Source: Candidatus Saccharimonadota bacterium
Lineage (GTDB): Bacteria > Patescibacteriota > Gracilibacteria > BD1-5 > UBA6164
Assembly (NCBI GenBank): GCA_965227835.1
Contig: OZ245768.1
Location: forward strand, 1,020,001 to 1,052,000
Length of the DNA stretch: 32,000 bases
Direction: 5' to 3'
Each line of letters begins with the position of its first letter. The first letter of the stretch is position 1. Shown one piece after another: positions 6,058 through 29,311 of the stretch. Under the pieces are notes generated by a model. The model was given only the letters and a program-made list of their open reading frames with translations, searched no databases and was not told the DNA's origin. Made by a program: the position numbers and the translations under genes.

Positions 6058-6495
6058 AAAAAAATTTGTTATAAATTAAAAAAATTAATTTATAAAAATA
6101 TTCAATTAATTCTATATATTTCTAGTATAAAATAATAGATAAATTACGAAAAATGTATTTGAATTAGTTGTATAAAACTAGTTTTTTGATTTTAGTTTAT
6201 AGACTTTTTTTGTCTTTGTTTAAAACTAGTTTTTATAAGTTTTAAATATTTTATAAATATCTTGTCTCCTTAAGAAAAAGCTATTAATATGTTAATTTTT
6301 AAAGCTTTCCATTAAATGCTTTTATATAAGTTTAAAAAGTTAATTCTAAATTCTAATCCTTTAATTATCAAAATAATTTTTTCTAAAAAAATATTTAACT
6401 TTCAAAAATTTCTAAAGCGATTTTTATATTAATGATTAGACAGAAAAAATCAAAAAAACTTTTATTTTTAAAAAAACAAAAGTTTAAAAAGACAA

Positions 6496-6519
6496 AGAGG
6501 CAGGTTTTAACCTGCCTCT
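6496..6519 (-). terminator. Intrinsic terminator, cassette A
   Basis: AGAGGCAGGT (6496-6505) pairs with ACCTGCCTCT (6510-6519), followed on the minus strand by TTGTCTTTTTAAACTTTTGTTTTTTT. The hairpin is identical to the one at 7054-7077. Confidence 0.8.
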
Positions 6520-6590
6520 CTTATTTAAGGATTATTAGCTCACAATGGCTTCATTATACTTCAACGAAGCTTGACAGCAACAACTTAGAT

Positions 6591-6845
6591 TTATTTCTCC
6601 CTGAAGTTACATTTACGAAAACAAAGAGCTTTCACTTCCGCTTCCAGCTTAAGAATATCCAACTTGTGCTGTTTCAATCTGAGCTGGTTCAGTCTGACAT
6701 GTTTAAGGGCAAGTTCTAGTTTAGCAATTTGACCTTGAACAGACTCCACAGATGTAGAATTTAGTTCATGCAAGTTAGATTCGGAGGCACAAACAGAACC
6801 AATGGATAATAATCCAAAAATAATTGCAATAAACATTTTTCCCAT
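6591..6845 (-). CDS. Small secreted coiled-coil protein (cassette A), TGA-free
   Basis: 84 aa, open in the standard code and ending in TAA. It has a signal-peptide-like N-terminus (MGKMFIAIIFGLLSIGSVCA|SE) and a strong RBS (AAAGGAGTAAGAT-ATG). The N-terminus is homologous to the 7083..7646 product. Confidence 0.7.
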   Translation of the reverse strand: MGKMFIAIIFGLLSIGSVCASESNLHELNSTSVESVQGQIAKLELALKHVRLNQLRLKQHKLDILKLEAEVKALCFRKCNFREK

Positions 6846-6989
6846 ATCTTACTCCTTTATAAAAATTGAATGGAAAATATAAAAACTTCATTCTATGCAA
6901 AACAAAACTTGTAATACAAAGAAGAAAACAACTTAGTTTTTGAATATAATTTAAATTTGAAAACTTAAATAATTCTAAAACTTGTTCGC

Positions 6990-7017
6990 ATTATAAACAT
7001 AAAAAATATTTTGTCAA
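6990..7017 (-). promoter_or_regulatory. Sigma70-like promoter of cassette A
   Basis: On the minus strand, TTGACA (7017-7012), a 16-nt spacer, then TATAAT (6995-6990). This predicts a 5'UTR of about 135 nt. Confidence 0.65.
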
Positions 7018-7053
7018 AAAATTTTTTAGATTTTTGAGTTTTTAAAAAGATAA

Positions 7054-7077
7054 AGAGGCAGGTTTTAACCTGCCTCT
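7054..7077 (-). terminator. Intrinsic terminator, cassette B
   Basis: Same hairpin, AGAGGCAGGT-TTTA-ACCTGCCTCT, placed 5 nt after the stop at 7083-7085. A T-rich tract follows on the minus strand. Confidence 0.8.
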
Positions 7078-7082
7078 TTTGC

Positions 7083-7646
7083 TTAAGGATGATTAGCCTT
7101 CAATTCGTCCAAAGATAAACATTTAATCTTAACAGCAATTACTTGTTCTCTCCCTTTTCGAGTATAATTCCTAACTTCCAAAATTTCGCATATATCTTCT
7201 TTATTTATGTAATCTTCACCTGATTTGTTATCGGCTAAAAAATCCCAATATGAAGAATAAATATTCACCTTATAATCTGATTTACTGATTGGTGAATATT
7301 GAACTATATCTCCTTTAAACGGGTAAACACCAAGCTTATACCTATATGGATAAATAGAAGTATTATGATATACATTTGAATATAAATCAATATTATCAAT
7401 GCTAGAAGATTCTTTTAACATTTTAAAATATGTACTATCTTCTATCCAAAACATTGCTCTATCAACACCTACACTTGCTGTAAAACTTCTCGAGGCATAC
7501 TCTACCCAAAAGCCCCCAGAATTATCTTCTTCAAAATTTGATTGAAAAGATTCATCCGCAGCATTTGAATAAAATGAATTGATTTCAAAAGCATGAACAG
7601 AATTAATGTATAATAATCCAAAAAGTAACATAAATATTTTTCCCAT
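7083..7646 (-). CDS. Secreted protein (cassette B), TGA-free
   Basis: 187 aa, open in the standard code and ending in TAA. The signal peptide is MGKIFMLLFGLLYINSVHA|FE. All 9 Gly codons are GGN and none is TGA. The RBS AAAGGAGTAAGAT-ATG is identical to cassette A. Confidence 0.75.
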   Translation of the reverse strand: MGKIFMLLFGLLYINSVHAFEINSFYSNAADESFQSNFEEDNSGGFWVEYASRSFTASVGVDRAMFWIEDSTYFKMLKESSSIDNIDLYSNVYHNTSIYPYRYKLGVYPFKGDIVQYSPISKSDYKVNIYSSYWDFLADNKSGEDYINKEDICEILEVRNYTRKGREQVIAVKIKCLSLDELKANHP

Positions 7647-7788
7647 ATCTTACTCCTTTATAAAAATTGAATGGAAAATATAAAAACTTCATTCTATGCA
7701 AAACAAAACTTGTAATACAAAGAAGAAAACACCTTAGTTTTTGAATATAATTTAAATTTAAAAACTTAAATATTCTAAAACTTTTTAC

Positions 7789-7816
7789 ATTATATATATA
7801 AAAAATATTTTGTCAA
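7789..7816 (-). promoter_or_regulatory. Sigma70-like promoter of cassette B
   Basis: On the minus strand, TTGACA (7816-7811), a 16-nt spacer, then TATAAT (7794-7789). It lies inside the duplicated block of about 195 bp. Confidence 0.65.
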
Positions 7817-7932: not shown

Positions 7933-9136
7933 GGGTCTGTTGCGTTTTGATTTTAAAAAGAGTTTTAATTAAGAAAAGTACTAAATAGATGAAAGATTTA
8001 TAAAATTCATCTATTTTTTGTTAAATTATAGCCATTTTTATATATAATTTAGGATTTTAGACAAAATCCACCTAAGGAAACTAATCTAAGCTATTGGGAT
8101 TTCCTCTAATACAACCAATCTTTTGAGATTAAAAGATATAGCTTCCATAAATGCAGTAAACTGGTTTTTTACTACAGATTTATATCTCACTCTATGATTC
8201 ATTTTTGAAAATACTCTCTCATAAGGAGATCTAAGTTTAGAATAAAATCTATCTTTATCCTTATCCTTCTCTTTCATATTATTCTTCTTTATTGCACATA
8301 AATGTAATCACTTCTTTTTTGATGATAATATAGCTGGTCAAATACAATATCACTTATCAGCATATACTGCTCATGAATTTGGTAATACATGTTTCATTCA
8401 CTTTGCATCTGTTACATTAGCTTGAGTTATAGCTATCTTGTTTATCATTCAAGATTGCATATCAACACTAGCGTGTTTTTTATATCCATACCAAAATTTA
8501 TTTTTTCACTTAGATCAAATTTTAGCTTCCTTATCATTAGCAACTTTTGGAAGAGTTTCATTATTCATTTTTTCATATCATTCTTTTATTCATTTATCTC
8601 TTTCTTCCCATAAATTAGCTTTAGTAACTAAATGAGAAGCATCTACAAATGTAAACACTTCACTCATATACCCCTTATTTGATAATTGATTTTTTAAATC
8701 TTCAAATATCTTTGATAGTTCATTTGTTCATATCTTTTTTCTTGCTCTTGAGAATATACTATAATCTGGAGTTTTATCTGTTAATTTAAATCAGCAAAAC
8801 CATTTACCAGCTAAATTTTCTGCAAGATATTTCTCTAACTCTCTATCTGATAGATCTTCCATAAACTGGATTAGTAAACATAGAAATAATTTTTTTACTC
8901 AATATCATACATGAGTTTTTCATAGATCTATATTTTTTAGTATTTTATTTACTCAATCAAAGTTCCACAATTTCTTAAATTTACGATATTGATGATTTTC
9001 TGGAATTAGCTCGTTTAGGATAACAAAACTTATTTGATTTGATTCTCACATAGGTATTTTCTTAGAATATAATTACTATCTAATTATATCTCTTTTTTCT
9101 CTTTTTAATAGCTAAAATCTAATTTGCAACAGACCC
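7933..9136 (-). mobile_element. IS5-family insertion sequence (1204 bp), intact
   Basis: The terminal inverted repeats are GGGTCTGTTGC (7933-7943) and GCAACAGACCC (9126-9136). A direct TTTAA duplication flanks the element (7928-7932 and 9137-9141). It encodes one DDE transposase. Confidence 0.85.
8086..9051 (-). CDS. IS5-family DDE transposase (DUF772 N-terminal domain plus DDE_Tnp_1-like domain)
   Basis: 321 aa, checked block by block, with more than 20 in-frame TGA = Gly. The motifs are LFLCLLIQFMEDLSDRELEKYLAENLAGKWFCGFKL..PDYSIFSRARKKIG, then D (FVDASHL), D (VYADKGY) and E (RSPYERVFSKMN). The track ORF 8086..8277 is its C-terminus. Confidence 0.88.
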
Positions 9137-20239: not shown

Positions 20240-20512
20240 AAAAAAAGCCCCCCATCGAGGGGGGCAAGACACGAATATAGATTCGTGTGCAAACCTACAA
20301 CATTTAAACTGTCGATGTTAGAGTATTCAGCACGTTAAGCTGTTAAGATTTGACTTTTGACTGTTTTAAAAATAAAGAAACAGTCTCGTACTTAAACATA
20401 TGCCTATGAATAATTTATTCATCCTCAAACATTATATTGACACATCAAAAATAATTAAATTCTTGATATTAAGTGCGTCTCAAGTTGTTTTACAATTTCG
20501 AATCGAACAACT
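20240..20512 (-). ncRNA. Unclassified structured RNA, paralog A (about 270 nt)
   Basis: It lies between its own promoter (20519-20546) and a GC-rich intrinsic terminator: GCCCCCC-ATCGA-GGGGGGC at 20247-20265 plus a U7 run. Several internal hairpins are visible, for example ACACGAAT/ATTCGTGT, GACTGTTT/AAACAGTC and AGTTGTT/AACAACT. No ORF is conserved with paralog B. Confidence 0.6.
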
Positions 20513-20518
20513 GCAAAT

Positions 20519-20546
20519 ATTATAATTTTTATATAGCTAAAGTCAA
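20519..20546 (-). promoter_or_regulatory. Sigma70-like promoter of RNA A
   Basis: On the minus strand, TTGACT (20546-20541), a 16-nt spacer, then TATAAT (20524-20519). Confidence 0.65.
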
Positions 20547-20741
20547 ATTTTTGCAGAAAAATTTTCATCATCCCTCAAAAATAGCTTTGTAAAGAGGTAA
20601 TCATTGTTTTATTCTTTGTTCTTAAAGAAATTCAAAAGCAATATTTTAATAAAAATATCTGTACTTTGTATAATTTTATTGTACAATACATTATCTGATC
20701 TTGAGTGCCTTGTTATAAAAATAAAACCATGGCATATAGTT

Positions 20742-21023
20742 AAAAAAAGAAAAACCTCGATTGTTCTGCAGAACAATCGAGGCTGGCACGGATCAAAAAT
20801 CCGTGTGCAAATCTAAAAAATTTTGGTTTCAGGTATTAGGTATGCTAAGTATTTAGATTTGACTTAAATTTGGCTACCTCAACTACTGTAGCACTAATTT
20901 ACTTAGACGATACCCGGAAATGATTTTTTTCAGATTCATCCCCAACCTTTTTCTTCAATCCCCGAACCGTTAGAATCTGAATTTCTAAATTAGGTTCGTT
21001 TGAATCGTTTTGGTTAACAATTA
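20742..21023 (-). ncRNA. Unclassified structured RNA, paralog B (about 280 nt)
   Basis: It has the same architecture as RNA A, with a promoter at 21030-21057. The terminator is CCTCGATTGTTCTG/CAGAACAATCGAGG (20755-20782) plus a U-rich run. It shares 3' motifs with RNA A: AAGTCAAATCT, TTTGCACACG and a hairpin before the terminator. Confidence 0.6.
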
Positions 21024-21029
21024 AAAGTA

Positions 21030-21057
21030 ATTATAATTTTTATATAACTAAAGTCAA
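21030..21057 (-). promoter_or_regulatory. Sigma70-like promoter of RNA B
   Basis: On the minus strand, TTGACT (21057-21052), a 16-nt spacer, then TATAAT (21035-21030). The sequence context is almost identical to the RNA A promoter. Confidence 0.65.
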
Positions 21058-21222
21058 ATTTATTACAAAAAACTTTTTTATCATCTCCAAAAATACCTTT
21101 ATAAAGCAATAATCTTTATTTTATTTTTTATTCTTGAAGACATCCAAATGCTATATTTTAATAAAAAATATCTGTACTTTGTATAATTTTATTGTACAAT
21201 ATATGTTTGTTTTTTATAAAAA

Positions 21223-23138
21223 CTAGCTAGGAGAAGTACTTACTACTTGTTCTTCATAATAGCTAGCAAGAACCTGTATTCATACATGTTCCATTCAAGC
21301 AAAAAATAATCATTGACCTACAGAGGCATTTAAAAGTATATATTTTTCTTGTTCTGTGAGTTTAAATATATTTTGAAGTGAATCTATAGAGGCACTGGAT
21401 TGCTTTAAAAGAAGTTGGATTGATGAGTTTGTAACTATAGGTTTTCAGTAAGTTGAGGCTATGAAATCTTCTATATCTTGAGTTATAGTCGTAATTCCTA
21501 GATTATATTTTCTAGCTCTTTTTACCAAACCAAAAAGAAATTTAGCAGAATCATCATGTTGCATAACATTCCAAGCTTCATCTATAACTAAAAGTCTTTT
21601 TTTAGAACTAGATCTTACCTTATTCCATATATAATTTAGTATTACATACATGGCTGTAGGTCTCATTATATCACTTAAATCTCTTACAGAAAATACTTGT
21701 AGTCACTCTTTTAAATCTATATTTGTTTCTTTACTAAAAATACCTGAAAATATTCAATTGGTATATTTTTCAAGTTTCAAAACTAAAGGGCCAGCTCAAT
21801 CCATAGTTTCTAATACATCTTGTAAGTCTTTCATTATAGGCATCTGTTTACCAGTAGCATCGTCATTTTCCATAGTAATTCATTTTAGACTATATGCAGT
21901 TATTATAGCTTTTTCCATTACAGATTCTTCAGTAGCATCAAGTTTACCAAGCATCAAATTCATAAGTCAAAGTACAGATATGACGGCAGATCTCAAAAGA
22001 TCACCAGGTTTTTCATCTCTATCTTTTAATCATAAAGGTAAATCAAAGGGATTTATTCTTTGGTTTGAGTTTAGTGATACATCCAAATAACTTCATCATA
22101 CAGTATCTATAAGAGCTTTATATTCATTTTCAGGATCTATAACTATTACATCAACTCACATCATCAAGCTTCTTAGTATTTCAAGTTTTACAGCAAAAGA
22201 TTTACCTCAACCAGATTTAGCAAATACACACATATTTGCATTTTCACTTTTAAATCTATCAAAAAGTATCAAAGAGTTGTTGTGTGTATTTACTCAATAC
22301 AATATACCGTCATCATGTGAAAGTGTAGAACTTGAAAATGGGAAAGTAGTTGAAATACCTCATGTAGACATATTTCTGTATACTCAAATTTCATCTTTGG
22401 CAAAAGGTCAGGTTGAAACAAAACCTTGCATACTTCTAAGGTAAGCTTGTTTTTGTAATACATTTCTTCCAGAAAGTATGGTTTCTATATTTTTCAAATT
22501 TTATCTAGTTGATCTAAAGAATCAGAATATATGGTTATATATATTGATAGGTGAAAATATTTTTCTTCTCATCTAGTAAGTTTGTGTCTAAGTTCTTCTA
22601 CATCTTGGATTTGGGCATCTATGGCAGGATCATTTATCAATCATTTATCTGCATTCATACTTCTTTCAGAATTTAGCTGAACCAGTCTTTTTTTTAGGAA
22701 TTTTTGGACAAATGCTGAATCAATAGGATATGTAAAAAGACTCATATCAAATTTTACATCTAGGTTTATCAGAGGAGAAAGCCAGTTTCATTCTAAAAAT
22801 GTAGGGTATGAATATACAAAAAATGTTTTTGCATATGTATTGTTTATATGAATATAGTTTGGTGCTTCTTTTAGAAAAGCTGGAGATATAGCATCTTTCA
22901 GAAAAGCTAGAGCTTCTTTATATTCTTTCTCTGTATCTAGTAGCTTTTGTTTTTCTTCTTTACTTAATTTTTCATCTGTTTTTTCAACTTTTTCTATTGT
23001 TTCTTTTGTTTTTTTTGTTTCATTTTCTTCTTTTTGTTTTTTAAGTGTATCCTTTGGTATATCTACTTCAAATCAACTTATGTCTCCAGTATATCTTTTT
23101 TTTACGAGTTCAAGCAATTTTTCGTTTTTGTTTGACAT
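21223..23138 (-). pseudogene. VirB4/TrbE/CagE-family type IV secretion ATPase, interrupted by a 1-nt frameshift near 22496-22502
   Basis: The N-terminal ORF runs from ATG 23138 to TAG 22485-22487 (217 aa). The ATPase frame opens after TAA 22501-22503 and runs to TAG 21223-21225. Walker A is FAKSGGGKSFAVK, Walker B is RLLVIDEAW, and IDPENEY, INPFDL and ITTITQDIEDF are also present. The track ORF 21445..21666 is an internal fragment. Confidence 0.8.
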
Positions 23139-23273
23139 TCTTGGCAGTTTACTAGTAAATTTTTGTTTATTTTATACTTCTATAATCCTTTGTAAAGCTT
23201 CTTAATGTTTTTTAGGTTGTCAAAAATATTAATAATTGCTTAATAGTTTTTATTTAAAGAAAATTCATTGATT

Positions 23274-23444
23274 TTAGAAATTATTTTTTATATAAAAACC
23301 AGCCTTGAATTTTCAAGGCTGGTTTACACCACTGATATTGTTATCATTTTGATTCTTCTTAGAAAGTAACACACAAAGAGTTACAGCAAAAAGAATAATA
23401 ACAACTATTGGAAACAATGATGGGGGATCAATTCCAGGAAACAT
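23274..23444 (-). CDS. Mini-protein with one TM helix (43 aa to the first TGA, 56 aa under code 25)
   Basis: The RBS AAAGGAGTAAGTTATT precedes the ATG at 23444. The product is MFPGIDPPSLFPIVVIILFAVTLCVLLSKKNQNDNNISGVNQP. TGA at 23313-23315 sits inside the terminator hairpin, and the next TAA is at 23274-23276. Confidence 0.5.
23285..23324 (-). terminator. Intrinsic terminator after the mini-gene cluster
   Basis: AACCAGCCTTGAA (23297-23309) pairs with TTCAAGGCTGGTT (23312-23324), followed on the minus strand by TTTTTATATAAAAAAT. Confidence 0.7.
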
Positions 23445-23491
23445 AATAACTTACTCCTTTTTTTTAGGGTGTTTTAATTTTCAAAAAATCA

Positions 23492-23575
23492 TTATTTTTT
23501 GAAAAATGATTTTACCCACATAATAGCTATGAAGGCAACAAGAAAGCCAAAGATCAAAAAAAATATAGTTCCCAT
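23492..23575 (-). CDS. Mini-protein, 27 aa, single TM helix
   Basis: The RBS AAAGGAGTATAAAT precedes the ATG at 23575. The product is MGTIFFLIFGFLVAFIAIMWVKSFFKK, ending in TAA at 23492-23494. Confidence 0.5.
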   Translation of the reverse strand: MGTIFFLIFGFLVAFIAIMWVKSFFKK

Positions 23576-23631
23576 ATTTATACTCCTTTAATTGGAAAGA
23601 AAAATGAAATTAAAATGCAAAAATAAAATTT

Positions 23632-23808
23632 TTAAATTTGTATTTCACAGGTATTGTAAAGAGTAATTCCTTTATGTCAATATTTTTTAAGTTTACGCTT
23701 CTTTCGAATCCTTCCATCAAGAAAACAACCTAAAGAATAACCTATTATAGAACCGAAAATAAACACAAACAAGAATATGTAAATTAATTCTTTCAATTCA
23801 TACTCCAT
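23632..23808 (-). CDS. Mini-protein with one TM helix (43 aa to the first TGA, 58 aa under code 25)
   Basis: The RBS AAAGGAGTTCTTTGAAT precedes the ATG at 23808. The product is MEYELKELIYIFLFVFIFGSIIGYSLGCFLDGRIRKKRKLKKY. TGA is at 23677-23679 and the next TAA is at 23632-23634. Confidence 0.5.
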
Positions 23809-23896
23809 ATTCAAAGAACTCCTTTTTAAAAAGAAATGATAAATAAAAAAGTGAAATTTAACTTGTAAATTTCAAGGAGTTTTTAATAAATAATTT

Positions 23897-24370
23897 TTAT
23901 TTGTCAAAAATTTTATCAGTGAAAAGTATTCAATCTAAATGATCTATTTCGTGTTGTACTATTCTAGAGGAGAGTTCTCCTAAAATTAAGACTCTATCTT
24001 TAATCTTATTATCTTTGTAAGATATTTTTATACTATTATATCTTTCCACCTTTCATTTTTCTCAGGGAAGTGACAAACATCACTCTTCACATACATTTGT
24101 TTCTAAAGAATGGTCTAATATCTTTGGATTTATCATCATAATTGTAGAAAAATCTTTATCTTCCCAATTTTTTAATAAACTCACAACTATTATTCTCTTA
24201 TTATATCATACTTGAGGTCCTGCAAGTCATACTCAAGAATTTTTAGGGTTTTTGATATATTTAATCATTTCTTTACCTAATTTAATATATTTTTTATAAT
24301 CTTTAGCTTGTATTTCTTCGCTTATTTTTCTAAGTATTTCATTTTGATTTCCAGTTTGTATAGATAGCAT
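23897..24370 (-). CDS. def: Peptide deformylase
   Basis: 157 aa with all three signature motifs: GVGLAGPQVG, EEGCLSLPG and QHEIDHLDG. Confidence 0.94.
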
Positions 24371-24523: not shown

Positions 24524-27500
24524 TTATTTCGTTTTAGTCATCTCAATCATTTTTCATAAAATATTTCATCTGTTGTTTATTATTACATCATAACCCAATA
24601 TCTTAAATCATTTATCATTGTCATTTGAATCATTTATAGGATTTAAATATATTCATTTAGAACTAGCACCATCTATTCATTTCAAACTATAATTAATAAC
24701 CTTATTTGTCTCTAAATTCTCCAACATAAGTATGTAATCATTACTTCTAAAATCAAATGTATAACTTCAAGTCGTATCATCTTTTAATTCAAGGTTTCAT
24801 CAAGTATCAATACTTATATATCATTCTCAATTTATTGATCAGGTAAGTGTCTCTAATCTCTTGAATTCCCTATATTCTTTATATCTCTCTTTATCTACCT
24901 TAATCAATTGTAATTCTGCTTGTCATGAAACTTCCAAATGAATAAATCAATTTTCTACTTCTCATAGTTTTTCGTTGAAAGAATCTGTATTGTTTGGATT
25001 GTCTTCTATGTATTTTTCTATTATGTAGTTATTCCAAAATATATTTTTTGTAACTAATGGGTAAACATATCAATTTATAGTTTTTCTAGTTTCATTGTCA
25101 TTGTCTTCATATTCTAAGGGTTTTACTATTCTTACTGTATCTGTTTCTTCAAGTTCGGTAGAGTTATTGGCATAATCGTAGGCTATTATTTTGTGTTTGT
25201 ATCTATGTCAGTTTTCTCCATTGTCTTTTGTGTAGGTCATTTCAAAAAGATTGTCATTAAGGTCTATATTGTCTTTTGTATATATCTTTTTCCAAGCTCA
25301 TAGATTATCAGATTCATATAGTTCTATTTTACTTAGTTTGCTTCATCATGTGTCTTTTGCTTTAAATGTTATGTCATAACTTCCTGTCTCTATGGCTCAA
25401 AGTACATAATTTAAATATAGACTGTCTGGTTTTATTTTATCTAGTTTGTAATGTCAGTTCCAAGTATATGTGTTTCAAGCTCAGTCTTTGGCACATAGAT
25501 AAAGTATGTGGCTTCCATTTGTTTTTTGAATTATAGTGTTTCAATTATTGAAATTGGTTCAGTCCCAACAGTGTGAATTGTTCCATCTGTATTTCTTTAC
25601 TGATAATCCACTTCATCATGTGTCTGATACTGATAGTTTAATTGATATGTCTGAGTTCTTCCATGATGCTGAATTATTGTCGGCTGATGCCTTAGGATTT
25701 GTATTGTCTAGTTTTAATACAAAATTTCATGTACTACTGGCATTTCAAGCATTATCCCATGTTTGGTATCTAATGGTGTTATTGTAGTTGCCAGATTTTG
25801 TTATAGTTGTTCAGGTTGTTCAAGTTGATAGATTACAACTGCTTCACTCACACCATTTTGTTGTCTTTACTCCAGATCATCATGAATCACTTGGGGATAA
25901 AGTTATGGTTCTTGTTCAGTTCTTCCAGATATTATTGTAAGAGTAGTTATTACTGACTGTGGGTTTGGTATTGTCTAGTTTTAGTAAAAAACTTCATATA
26001 CTACTTGTATTTCAGGCATTATCCCATGTTTGATATCTAATGGTGTTATTGTAGTTGCCAGATTTTGTTATAGTTGTTCAGGTTGTTCAAGTTGATGGGT
26101 TACAGTTATCTCACTGACACCATTTTGTTGTCTTTATTCCAGATCATCATGAATCACTTGGGGATAAATTTATGGTTCTTGTTCAGTTCTTCCAGGTATC
26201 ATTGTAAGAGTAGTTATGGCTAACAGTAGGTTTTGTCTTATCTATTCTATATTTTCAACTCCAGGTTTGTGTGTTTCAGGCTCAATCTTTGGCACATAAA
26301 TACAGTGTGTTATTTCAGGCTGTACTTCTAGTTATAGTATTTCAGTTATTGAATGTAGTTCAATTCCAACAGTCTGAATTGTTCCATCTGTATTTCTTCA
26401 ATGATAATCAACTTCATCATGTATCCGATGCCGATAATTTAATTGATATGTCTGAGTTCTTCCAGGTTGTGCTTGAATTTGTTGCCGAAATACTAGGTTT
26501 AGTCTTGTCTAGTTTATATTTTCAACTCCAGGTTTGTGTGTTTCAGGCTCAATCTTTGGCACATAAATACAGTGTGTTATTTCAGGCTGTACTTCTAGTT
26601 ATAGTATTTCAGTTATTGAATGTAGTTCAATTCCAACAGTCTGAATTGTTCCATCTGTATTTCTTCAATGATAACCCACTTCATCATGTATCCGATGCCG
26701 ATAATTTAATTGATATATTTGAATTCTTCCAGGTTGTGCTTGAATTTGTTGCCGAAATACTAGGTTTTGTCTTATCTATTCTATATTTTCAACTCCAGGT
26801 TTGTGTGTTTCAGGCTCAATCTTTGGCACATAAATACAGTGTGTTATTTCAGGCTGTACTTCTAGTTATAGTATTTCAGTTATTGAATGTAGTTCAATTC
26901 CAACAGTCTGAATTGTTCCATCTGTATTTCTTCAATGATAACCCACTTCATCATGTATCCGATGCCGATAATTTAATTGATATATTTGAATTCTTCCAGG
27001 TTGTGCTTGAATTTGTTGCTCAAATACTGGGTTTTGTATTGTCTAGTTTATATGTTCAACTCCATGTCTGTGTGTTTCAAGCTCAATCCCTAGCACATAA
27101 ATACAGTGTGTTATTTCAGGCTGTACTTCTAGTTATAGTGTTTCAATTATTGAATGTAGTTCAATTCCAACAGTCTGAATTGTTCCATCTGTATTTCTTC
27201 AATGATAATCAACTTCATCATGAATCTGATACTGATAACTTAATCGATATATCCGATTTCTTCCATGAACTACTAGAATTTGTCGCTGAAATACTAGGCT
27301 TGGTATTATCTATCTTTAGATTAATACTTCATACAGTACTAGAATATCACATGTTATCCCATGTTTGATATCTAATTGTATTGTTATAGTTTGCATATTT
27401 TGTTATGGTTGTTCAAACATTTCAGTTTGATATATTACAAGCACTTCACTCACACCATTTGGTAGTCTTTATTCCAGATAATGAATCTTTCGGATATAGA

Positions 27501-29311
27501 GTTATGGTTTTTGATGAACCATTTTTCCAAATATTACTGTAAGAATAATTATGAGTTATACTAGGAATATTTCTATCTATTCTATATTTTCAGCTCCATG
27601 TTTGCATATTTCAAGCTCAATCTTTAGTACATAAATATAGAGTATGATCTCAACTGTTAGCTTGAACTATGTATTTTCAATTATTAAACATAGTTCATCA
27701 ATTCCAACAGTCCGAATTATTCCACCTATATTTCTTTAATGATAATCCACTTCATCATGTGTCTGAAGCTGATAATTTAATTGTGATATTTCAGTATTTC
27801 CATGAGTTGCTAGAATTTGTTGCCGAGGTAGTAGGTTTTGTCTTATCTAGCTTATATGTTCAACTCCATGTCTGTGTATTTCAGGCTCAATCCCTAGCAC
27901 ATAAATATAGTGTATTACTTCAAGTTGTACTTCTAGTTATAGTATTTCAATTATTAAATGTAGTTCCATTCCAGCAATTTGAATTGTTCCATCTATATTT
28001 CTTTAATGATAATCAACTTCATCATGTATCTGATGCTGATAGTTTAATCGATATATCCGATTTCTTCCATGAACTACTAGAATTTGTCGCTGAAATACTA
28101 GGCTTGGTATTATCTATCTTTAGATTAATACTTCATACAGTACTAGAATATCACATGTTATCCCAAGTTTGATATCTAATAGTATTGTTGTAGTTTGCAT
28201 ATTTTGTGATGTTTGTTCAGATTGTTCAAGTTGATGGATTACAGCTACTTCATTGACACCATTTTGTTGTCTTTATTCCAGATAATGAGTCTTTTGGATG
28301 TAGGGTTATGGTTTTTGATGAACCATTTCTCCAAATATTACTGTAATAATAATTATGACTAATTATTGGGGATGTTCTATCTATCCTATAATATCAAGAC
28401 CATCTTCTTGAATTTCAAGCATTATCTCTAGTACATACATAGAGTATATTATTATAGTCTGAAGTTTGTGTTATTTTATTTCAATTATTAAAATAAGTAC
28501 CTCCATTCCAACAATCTGAATTATTCCATCTATATCTTCAATCATAATAATTATAAACACTTCTATATCTCCACTCTGAGGTGAATCAAAGGCTATATCT
28601 ATATTTTTCTGTATGAGAATAAACTTTATATTTCGATAATCCACTTCATCATGAATCTGAAGCTGATAAAGTAATTGATATATCTGATTTTCTCCATGAA
28701 CTACTAGAATTTGAACCATAACCACTAGGCAGTGTTTTATCTAACCTATATGTTCAGTTCCAAGTTTGAGTGTTTCAAGCTCAATCTTTGGCACATAAAT
28801 ACAAAGTACTGCTTCAATCTGTACTTTTAGTTATAGTGTTTCAATTATTGAATGTAGTTCAATTCCAACAATCTGAATTGTTCCATCTATATTTCTTTAC
28901 TGACAATCAACTTCATCATGAATCTGAAGCTGATAAAGTAATTGATATATCTGATTTTCTCCGTGAACTACTAGAATTTGTCGCTGAAATACTAGGTCTT
29001 GTATCATCATATTTTCTACATTTTATTTTTGTTCAATTTTTTCAAATAACTCTGTCTTCACCATCACACATAGTCATAGTTCCTTTGGAAGTACTTTTTT
29101 CATAATCCGAACTTGAATAATAATTATGGGTATTGCAAGTATAAGATGTTCAAGATTTATATGTATCTGAGTCTCTAGGAACACTACTTGATCAACAATC
29201 TGTACCCTCATTTGGTCATCATCAATAAATAGTTGTTAAAGATGCTGAAAAAGCTAAATTATAAAATGACAGAGTAAAAAGAAAGAAGAATAATAAAAAT
29301 AATTTTTTCAT
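24524..29311 (-). CDS. Giant secreted surface protein (1595 aa) made of tandem Ig-like/beta-sandwich repeats
   Basis: ATG at 29311 and TAA at 24524-24526. I checked the frame at 28918, 27361, 26263 and 25618, and codon by codon from 25618 to 24524. The signal peptide is MKKLFLLFFFLFTLSFYNLAFSA. Type-A repeats of about 89 aa read KPSISATNSS..W.NSDISIKLSASDTGGSGLSLKKYRWNNSDCWNGTTFNNGNTI....G.NTLYLCAKDGAGNTQTW. Type-B repeats read PSI.HNYSYSNIWKNGS..ITL.P.DSLSGIKTTKWC.G..CN....G...TITK..NYNNTIRYQTWDN.G. The conserved G residues are often TGA. The long plus-strand track ORFs here are antisense artefacts. Confidence 0.85.
26261..27328. repeat. Four head-to-tail 267-bp DNA repeats, three of them nearly identical, inside the giant gene
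   Basis: The unit boundary motif CCAGGTTTGTGTGTTTCAGGCTCAATCTTTGGCACATAAATACAG recurs at 26261, 26528 and 26795, and in diverged form at 27062. The period is exactly 267 bp (89 codons). Differences cluster in three short patches. Confidence 0.9.

Follow-up and report, generated by a model that had tools for sequence, protein, structure and literature searches.

How do three short genes that end conventionally under the standard genetic code come to lie in a genome that reads TGA as glycine? The question is raised by a block of mini-genes, here called A, B and C, on the minus strand of a 32 kb stretch of one Gracilibacteria genome (the window; all coordinates are window positions). The block is flanked by def (24370..23897, minus strand) and by a gene (23138..21223, minus strand) whose product had been called VirB4-like in an earlier reading made from the letters alone (the sequence-only reading), an assignment now backed by matches to Pfam P-loop_TraG (7e-27) and AAA_10. 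Long open reading frames (ORFs) appear in the window only when TGA is treated as a sense codon, and TGA is found at invariant glycine positions in L2 (RHKggGH and HPHGGgEgH), in the VirB4 Walker A motif (SGgGKS) and in the motifs of def. The genome therefore uses code 25, and code 4 was rejected for it on the same grounds. As prfB is reportedly missing from all BD1-5 genomes (PMC6851277), UGA presumably cannot terminate translation in the source cell, and the products made there from A, B and C should therefore be 58, 27 and 56 aa long, unless a non-stop product is formed.

Gene A starts at ATG 23808 and reaches its first TGA at 23679-23677, which is codon 44 (span 23677..23808, 43 codons). 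The 43-aa product, MEYELKELIYIFLFVFIFGSIIGYSLGCFLDGRIRKKRKLKKY, has one transmembrane (TM) segment (residues 8-30) and a C-terminal tail with a charge of +7. In the code 25 reading the frame continues to the next TAA at 23634-23632, giving 58 aa, and the extension (23632..23676) contributes HKGITLYNTCEIQI after the TGA-encoded Gly and before the TAA. Gene B runs from ATG 23575 to TAA 23494-23492 with a TGA directly after it (span 23489..23575, 27 codons), and its product is MGTIFFLIFGFLVAFIAIMWVKSFFKK. Gene C begins at ATG 23444 and meets TGA at 23315-23313, again codon 44 (span 23313..23444, 43 codons). Its 43-aa product, MFPGIDPPSLFPIVVIILFAVTLCVLLSKKNQNDNNISGVNQP, has one TM segment, and code 25 carries the frame on to TAA 23276-23274, adding KFKAGFYIKNNF (23274..23312) and giving 56 aa. 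An identical Shine-Dalgarno (SD) octamer, AAAGGAGT, precedes each start on the same strand, at 23818..23825 for A, 23582..23589 for B and 23453..23460 for C, ending 9, 6 and 8 nt, respectively, before the ATG. The three peptides are unrelated to one another, and each contains one 19-residue hydrophobic segment (Kyte-Doolittle 2.3-2.95) followed by a basic or polar tail, with an N-out/C-in topology predicted from the charge distribution.

The three ORFs of 43, 27 and 43 codons, each with an SD and a single hydrophobic helix, had been described in the sequence-only reading, as had the residues that code 25 would add to A (43 to 58 aa) and C (43 to 56 aa), and all were confirmed here. The same reading had drawn attention to the first TGA being codon 44 in both A and C. 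The position is correct, but two such ORFs would share a length about 5% of the time, and the coincidence carries no weight. At the local composition, three frames that stay open for 43, 27 and 43 codons downstream of an SD and ATG have a joint probability of ~2e-5.

TGA usage separates these genes from their surroundings. In the 32 native genes of the window that served as the reference for Gly codons, TGA accounts for 439 of the 645 (68%; leaving out the giant repeat protein lowers this to 63%). None of the eight Gly codons in the mini-genes, four of them in gene A, is TGA (P = 3e-4), as the sequence-only reading had stated. When two further cassette genes of the window, cas84 and cas187, are included, TGA is found at none of 21 Gly codons (P = 7e-10). 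The other two frames of these five genes, together referred to here as the class, hold TGA at the native frequency, and the depletion is therefore specific to the reading frame.

The five genes are also distinguished by how they start. The window contains six copies of the octamer AAAGGAGT where 1.1 would be expected, and five of them lie ahead of the ATG of an ORF with a hydrophobic N-terminus. Every class gene carries it, whereas among 29 native starts not one shows so much as a 4-mer resembling an SD in the 20 nt upstream, and native leaders are 65-100% A+T. An SD signature common to the cassettes and missing from native genes, as had been proposed, is thus borne out in the window. Elsewhere the arrangement is rare. 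Five examples of AAAGGAGT-N4-10-ATG are found in the 32 kb window versus eight in a screening set of 161 other Gracilibacteria loci (2.0 Mb), and one of the eight belongs to an orthologue of cas187.

A comparison of codon usage between SD-led and SD-less genes had been suggested and was run within the window (G = 131, 42 degrees of freedom). Isoleucine is encoded by ATT 21 times and by ATA 11 times in the class (35% and 61%, respectively, in native genes), CGT or CGA account for 4 of 13 Arg codons (1% or less in native genes), and GCC/GCG, GTG and AAG are used more than in native genes. The G+C content at third codon positions (GC3) is 0.19-0.33 in the class versus 0.10-0.22, and the overall G+C of cas84 (37%) lies above the native gene range of 21-33%. 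The atypical codon usage and composition expected of recent horizontal acquisition are present.

The TGA codons that end A and C under the standard code coincide with transcription signals. Codon 44 of gene A is included in the -35 hexamer of a sigma-70-like promoter (TTGACA-16-TACAAT, 11/12; 23653..23680, minus strand), and the code 25 extension of the gene overlaps this promoter-like site. The putative promoter would drive genes B and C, giving a transcript whose leader, up to the start of gene B, would be ~70 nt long. Gene B ends in tandem TAA-TGA stops. The TGA of gene C had been placed inside a terminator hairpin, and it does lie in the 5' arm of an intrinsic terminator (23296..23325, minus strand) with a stem of 13-14 bp including six G-C pairs, followed by UUUUUAU. 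The hairpin folds at -23.2 kcal/mol (z = -5.9; none of 200 shuffles folds as well), and as an inverted repeat the stem is 100% complementary over 14 nt. The code 25 frame of gene C crosses both the hairpin and the U-tract before reaching TAA ~20 nt past the stem. As A, B and C all end conventionally under the standard code, the ORF ends look as if they were shaped under that code, and the code 25 extensions as if they were translated regulatory DNA.

A second, weak promoter-like site, TTGACA-16-TAAAAA (10/12; 23880..23907, minus strand), was read by eye and overlaps the stop codon of def. The promoter scan did not list it, the -10 hexamer lacking the final T. It is a possible promoter of gene A, or gene A may be co-transcribed with def instead. 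Sites matching at least 11 of 12 positions number seven in the 32 kb, versus 3.6 +/- 1.9 expected, and include two 12/12 cassette promoters and two sites ahead of putative small-RNA units. All five near-consensus intergenic sites (in the block, the two cassettes and the two small-RNA units) have 16-nt spacers. Imperfect direct repeats of 22-24 nt, both containing TTTTTGACAA, flank the block at 23210-23231 and 23894-23915 (82% identity over 22 nt, spacing 684 nt). These may be duplicated promoter sequence or a chance occurrence in AT-rich DNA.

The cassettes cas187 (7052..7816, minus strand) and cas84 (6494..7017, minus strand) are self-contained units. The former has the promoter TTGACA-16-TATAAT (12/12), a 5' untranslated region (5'UTR) of ~135 nt, AAAGGAGT and a GC-hairpin terminator, and the latter shares the duplicated consensus promoter, 5'UTR (its ~135 nt length depends on an inferred start site), SD and GC-hairpin terminator. 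They encode proteins of 187 and 84 aa, each with a signal peptide and no TGA codon; the 187-aa protein is an orphan, and its AlphaFold model has a pLDDT (predicted local distance difference test score) of 36. Gene B is tied to these cassettes. Across the leader and the ~14 opening codons it aligns to the leader and signal-peptide region of cas187 (MGTIFFLIFGFL versus MGKIFMLLFGLL; local alignment z = 6.4, with none of 500 shuffles scoring as high), indicating that gene B is a truncated copy of the cassette 5' module. Between the cas84 terminator and rny, at 6255-6275 (minus strand), AAGGAGACAAGATATT resembles the SD-to-start segment of the cassettes, AAGGAGTAAGATATG, but has no ATG, and may be a degenerate third cassette start.

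A sibling strain (contig L081), in which the ribosomal proteins (r-proteins) and SecY are 97-100% identical to those of the window (synonymous divergence, dS, 0.01-0.16), allowed cas187 to be compared. The sibling contig ends at rpsH and extends the other way, so the comparison covers the cas187 side. There cas187 comes directly after secY; it has kept its promoter, leader and SD and still contains no TGA. The ~135-nt leader is about 96% conserved (L081:4190-4990) and may be regulatory. The protein is only 87.6% identical to its sibling version, with a ratio of nonsynonymous to synonymous substitution (dN/dS) of ~1.5. Among six housekeeping genes compared, dN/dS was at most 0.03 in five (SecY and four of five r-proteins), and the value of 1.24 for the sixth, rplO, comes from six substitutions. 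Either this secreted protein is under diversifying selection or the constraint on it has been relaxed. Between the two strains, 2 of 109 native Gly sites have switched between TGA and GGN. In the window, a gene for an insertion sequence (IS) transposase (8086-9051, minus strand; 321 aa, 17 TGA codons) lies between secY and cas187. Its homologue in L081 matches DDE_Tnp_1, and cas187 adjoins secY at the corresponding place in that contig.

All 161 loci of the screening set were searched for genes with significantly too few TGA codons. In one (L090:12098-12916), a 272-aa secreted protein with a signal peptide, belonging to the Pfam NAGPA family, is encoded with no TGA among 29 Gly codons (P = 3e-13). 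AGGAG is found 8 nt before its ATG, and the gene is 34% GC versus 20-27% around it. It is likely to be a recent import from a standard-code organism, and it shows that the same combination of an SD and absence of TGA has arisen elsewhere in the phylum.

Relatives of the mini-genes were sought at several levels. A comparison set of 160 loci related by VirB4 included 79 from GTDB species, nearly all labelled Gracilibacteria, Peribacteria or Patescibacteria and with VirB4 identities of 69-86%, and 80 from metagenomes (47-76%). Homologues of A, B and C are absent from all 160, as are SD-led small ORFs ahead of virB4, and the gene neighbourhood of virB4 is different even in L001 and L003, the closest species. 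The sequence-only reading had held that homologues conserving the extended C-termini in other code 25 genomes would speak against it, and in these loci there were none. Searches of the 161 screening loci with A, B and C (tblastn, code 25) returned only noise. In a search of 5.8 billion proteins with A, C and cas187, gene A had no match, gene C matched only the 56-aa call from the window itself, which has W at codon 44 (P0003), and cas187 found itself and one protein of 86% identity. An exhaustive HMMER scan of 1.84 billion representatives gave no further relative of cas187, and exact-sequence look-ups of the 43-aa forms of A and C and of cas187 returned no record.

Family-level searches were also negative. 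Pfam, PHROGs, PADLOC and NCBIfam scans of A, B and C gave only sub-threshold noise (for example B12D, PspB and a Gram-positive anchor), Rfam gave nothing meaningful in the mini-gene or cassette regions, and searches of IMG/VR, the INPHARED phages and the PLSDB plasmids yielded no relative. One exact 22-mer match in IMG/VR (L162) was rejected as coincidental, as it covers the ribosome-binding site and start of a phage gene for an unrelated protein of 173 aa, in DNA of higher GC. The distribution is patchy, with cas187 present in only one sibling strain, but no donor could be identified, all class genes being orphans. For A, B and C this orphan status is weaker evidence than for cas187, because small ORFs are poorly represented in protein databases.

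The best-supported explanation is that A, B, C and the two cassettes are recently imported standard-code, SD-using cassettes that then underwent local duplication and truncation, although on the sequence evidence we are evenly divided as to whether it is correct. Import explains at once why these genes have an SD, lack TGA in their own frame only, use codons differently and have their TGAs where coding and regulatory sequence meet, and why the class is patchily distributed and paralleled in L090. A standard-code source had been suggested by the sequence-only reading, and TGA use, codon choice, GC3, the TGAs at the -35 box and terminator, and the L090 gene all point the same way. The mini-genes would then have entered between def and virB4 as a small block confined to this lineage, and the source of the cassettes would be a bacterium, a phage or other mobile DNA with the standard code and SD initiation. 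Local duplication or rearrangement after import would have left gene B as a truncated leader and signal-peptide module.

Under the import explanation, transcription would proceed from the sigma-70-like promoters with 16-nt spacers and end at the hairpin after gene C, the anti-SD of 16S rRNA would pair with AAAGGAGT, and the products would be short N-out/C-in single-pass membrane peptides. Without release factor 2 (RF2), TGA would be read as Gly, and peptide A would gain 15 residues from promoter DNA. A ribosome on gene C would enter the terminator, with two possible outcomes. A ribosome coupled to transcription might melt the hairpin and allow read-through toward virB4, or else the terminated mRNA would have no in-frame stop and would become a substrate for transfer-messenger RNA (tmRNA). 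By analogy, the nearest functional counterparts of the peptides appear to be small hydrophobic toxin-like or membrane-modulating peptides.

Several observations weigh against recent import. The 16-nt spacer is also found in the two other near-consensus intergenic sites, and the transcription signals therefore look native. Promoter-like sites as a group occur at chance frequency. The G+C content of the three mini-genes (26-33%) falls within or at the edge of the native range. No donor was found for A, C or cas187 among the 5.8 billion proteins, and the viral, phage and plasmid sets yielded no match either. The dN/dS of cas187 also fits decay. The mini-genes are known from a single genome, and a weakness of the evidence for import as a whole is that it comes from 32 kb of that genome.

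An alternative is that the class is native and under selection. SD initiation together with UGA avoidance would keep the genes translatable, or would change the length of the product, when decoding by Gly-tRNA(UCA) falls short or the code is disturbed, as it might be under stress or by a phage, with the TGA at codon 44 acting as a conditional stop or stall site. The identical octamer in five genes that all encode exported or membrane products, the native-looking promoter spacing, the synteny of cas187, which lies downstream of secY in both strains and keeps its leader, and the placement of TGA exactly at the junction of coding and regulatory sequence in A and C would all be expected. However, UGA avoidance alone is insufficient, since non-Gly codons and GC3 deviate as well, even from those of highly expressed r-protein genes. 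The class is not seen in 2.0 Mb of other Gracilibacteria, and the two strains have diverged too little for selection to be visible (2 of 109 native Gly sites switched). We consider a native class unlikely. Decay offers another account, in which the mini-genes are N-terminal stubs of former cassette genes with a surviving SD and ATG and no functional product. Gene B is indeed no more than the leader and signal-peptide portion of a cas-type unit, all class genes are orphans, gene C has no proper stop in its terminated transcript under the host code, and the dN/dS of ~1.5 for cas187 would suit it. Three perfect SD octamers, ATGs, hydrophobic helices and a terminator are not expected to persist through long neutral decay at 26% GC, and the joint chance of the open frames (~2e-5) also argues against remnants, which seem to us improbable. 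The cassettes might instead be maintained as 'bilingual' genes that can be read in both code 25 and the standard code, or the UGA at codon 44 might serve as a sensor of the state of the code or tRNA, though the probability of either is slim. Bilingual cassettes may be common to this cell and a partner that uses the standard code, or may function in the setting of such a partner, which could be the host bacterium of the epibiont, a cross-code phage or a mobile element, possibly linked to the adjacent type IV secretion system (T4SS). As a sensor, the UGA could determine whether a 43-aa peptide or a longer or tmRNA-tagged one is made, and translation of gene C could be coupled to terminator read-through ahead of virB4.

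Two further alternatives concern what the peptides do. Fst, TxpA, Hok and TisB are type I toxins, and the mini-peptides resemble such toxins, or holins, in being under 60 aa (27-58 aa), with one TM helix, a basic, charged C-terminal tail and a strong SD each, in an intergenic block with its own promoter-like sites and terminator. An ACTCCTT heptamer, which is anti-SD-like, lies 45 nt upstream of the SD of gene A, and a promoter-like site on the plus strand (23132-23161) would give an RNA convergent with gene C. On this view each would be a self-contained toxic module restrained by RNA structure or by an antisense RNA. The fold of the gene A 5'UTR is no better than those of shuffles (z = -0.67), and the antisense promoter matches at 10/12, which is chance frequency. 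Unlike in typical tandem type I loci, the three peptides are mutually unrelated; no toxin, holin or defence family was matched in Pfam, NCBIfam, PHROGs or PADLOC, even at E <= 10, and the neighbours are def and virB4, with no lysin gene nearby. A toxin-like or holin-like role, which would be compatible with foreign origin, is doubtful. The sequence-only reading had also considered VirB2-like or VirB3-like T4SS components, and the mini-genes do lie immediately upstream of virB4 on the same strand, where they might form a VirB2-like pilin array or VirB3/PrgI-like anchors for the adjacent VirB4. VirB2-type pilins have a signal peptide and two hydrophobic helices and are about 70-120 aa long. The products here are 27-58 aa with one hydrophobic segment of 19-23 residues. 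Hidden Markov model (HMM) searches of the kind that had been called for, against VirB2, VirB3, PrgI-like and holin families (Pfam, NCBIfam and PHROG), gave no match. Neither the 43-aa nor the read-through forms matched VirB2/TrbC or T4SS_pilin (PF04956, PF18895) in Pfam at E <= 0.01 or even at E <= 10, and A, B and C had no match to VirB3, PrgI or TraL in Pfam or NCBIfam. Tandem arrays of highly divergent VirB2-like genes, together with PrgI, are often present beside virB4 in Patescibacteria (PMC12102498), which the tandem small hydrophobic ORFs recall, but the mini-peptides are half the size or less and have a single segment. They are also missing upstream of virB4 in the 79 GTDB-species and 80 metagenome loci despite the conservation of VirB4, a terminator separates gene C from virB4, and the virB4 of the window carries a frameshift. 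In Gracilibacteria, VirB6 was not detected and VirB3 is rarely near virB4 (4.7% of VirB3 homologues; PMC12102498). A T4SS role thus appears very improbable.

The frameshift breaks the VirB4-like gene into two ORFs (23138..22485 and 22500..21223, minus strand) at 22485-22500 and results from a 1-nt deletion in an A-run, A5 in the window versus A6 in L001. In 79 other aligned loci virB4 is a single ORF, encoding 590-704 aa where complete. The frameshift could be a homopolymer assembly error, the mark of a pseudogene or a slippery site.

Among described systems, the closest are the code-11-compatible, TGA-free phages predicted for Gracilibacteria and Absconditabacteria, in which a further stop lies close to where TGA ends a gene (Liu et al. 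2023; PMC10746230). The mini-genes likewise have no in-frame TGA in a code 25 host, gene B ends in TAA-TGA, and A and C reach a TAA 14 and 12 codons, respectively, after the TGA. They differ in being chromosomal, between def and virB4 with no phage hallmark genes nearby, in having no match in IMG/VR or INPHARED, and in their SD, as SD usage is not part of the phage description. Because the prophages reported in these phyla are all code 25 (PMC10746230), chromosomal standard-code cassettes are a variant not described there.

Two other comparisons can be made. With a self-contained promoter, SD, short ORF and intrinsic terminator, and with composition and codon usage unlike those of the surroundings, the units resemble phage 'morons', which are autonomous, horizontally acquired cassettes. 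The mini-gene block, however, is outside any recognisable prophage or island and has no integrase or att sites. A few strong-SD genes in an otherwise SD-less genome, implying a distinct mode of initiation, also recall rpsU in Bacteroidetes, a rare SD-led gene in an SD-poor lineage. That gene is a conserved housekeeping gene with an autoregulatory logic, whereas the mini-genes have foreign codon usage and encode exported orphans. In Gracilibacteria, bS21 is often missing (PMC9297842).

Two further features of the window were recorded. Between virB4 and rplC (20240-21200, minus strand) are two paralogous non-coding units with a conserved upstream box, 11/12 promoters (TTGACT-16-TATAAT) at 21057 and 20546, bodies of ~250-270 nt and tandem GC hairpins with a T-run at their ends (20810-20750 and 20290-20250). 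They matched no Rfam family, tRNA or tmRNA and are candidate novel small RNAs. The second feature is a gene at 24524-29311 (minus strand) for a protein of 1595 aa that has a signal peptide and 129 glycines encoded by TGA. Its long internal repeats show up as recurring antisense ORFs (25.5-29.1 kb), and the product is probably a large surface protein of repetitive make-up.

Codon reassignment is commonly seen as an obstacle to gene flow, and here a code 25 genome carries gene units of standard pattern. If imported, they would be a concrete, datable example of genes just after crossing a code boundary, one of which would gain a promoter-encoded C-terminus while another would run through its own terminator and may have no stop. 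The combination of an SD, zero in-frame TGA and deviant codon usage would provide a signature with which Gracilibacteria and Absconditabacteria can be screened for recent imports, complementing published work on the code-11-compatible phages of these hosts. Should selection have maintained the class instead, it would represent a second translation regime in a recoded bacterium.

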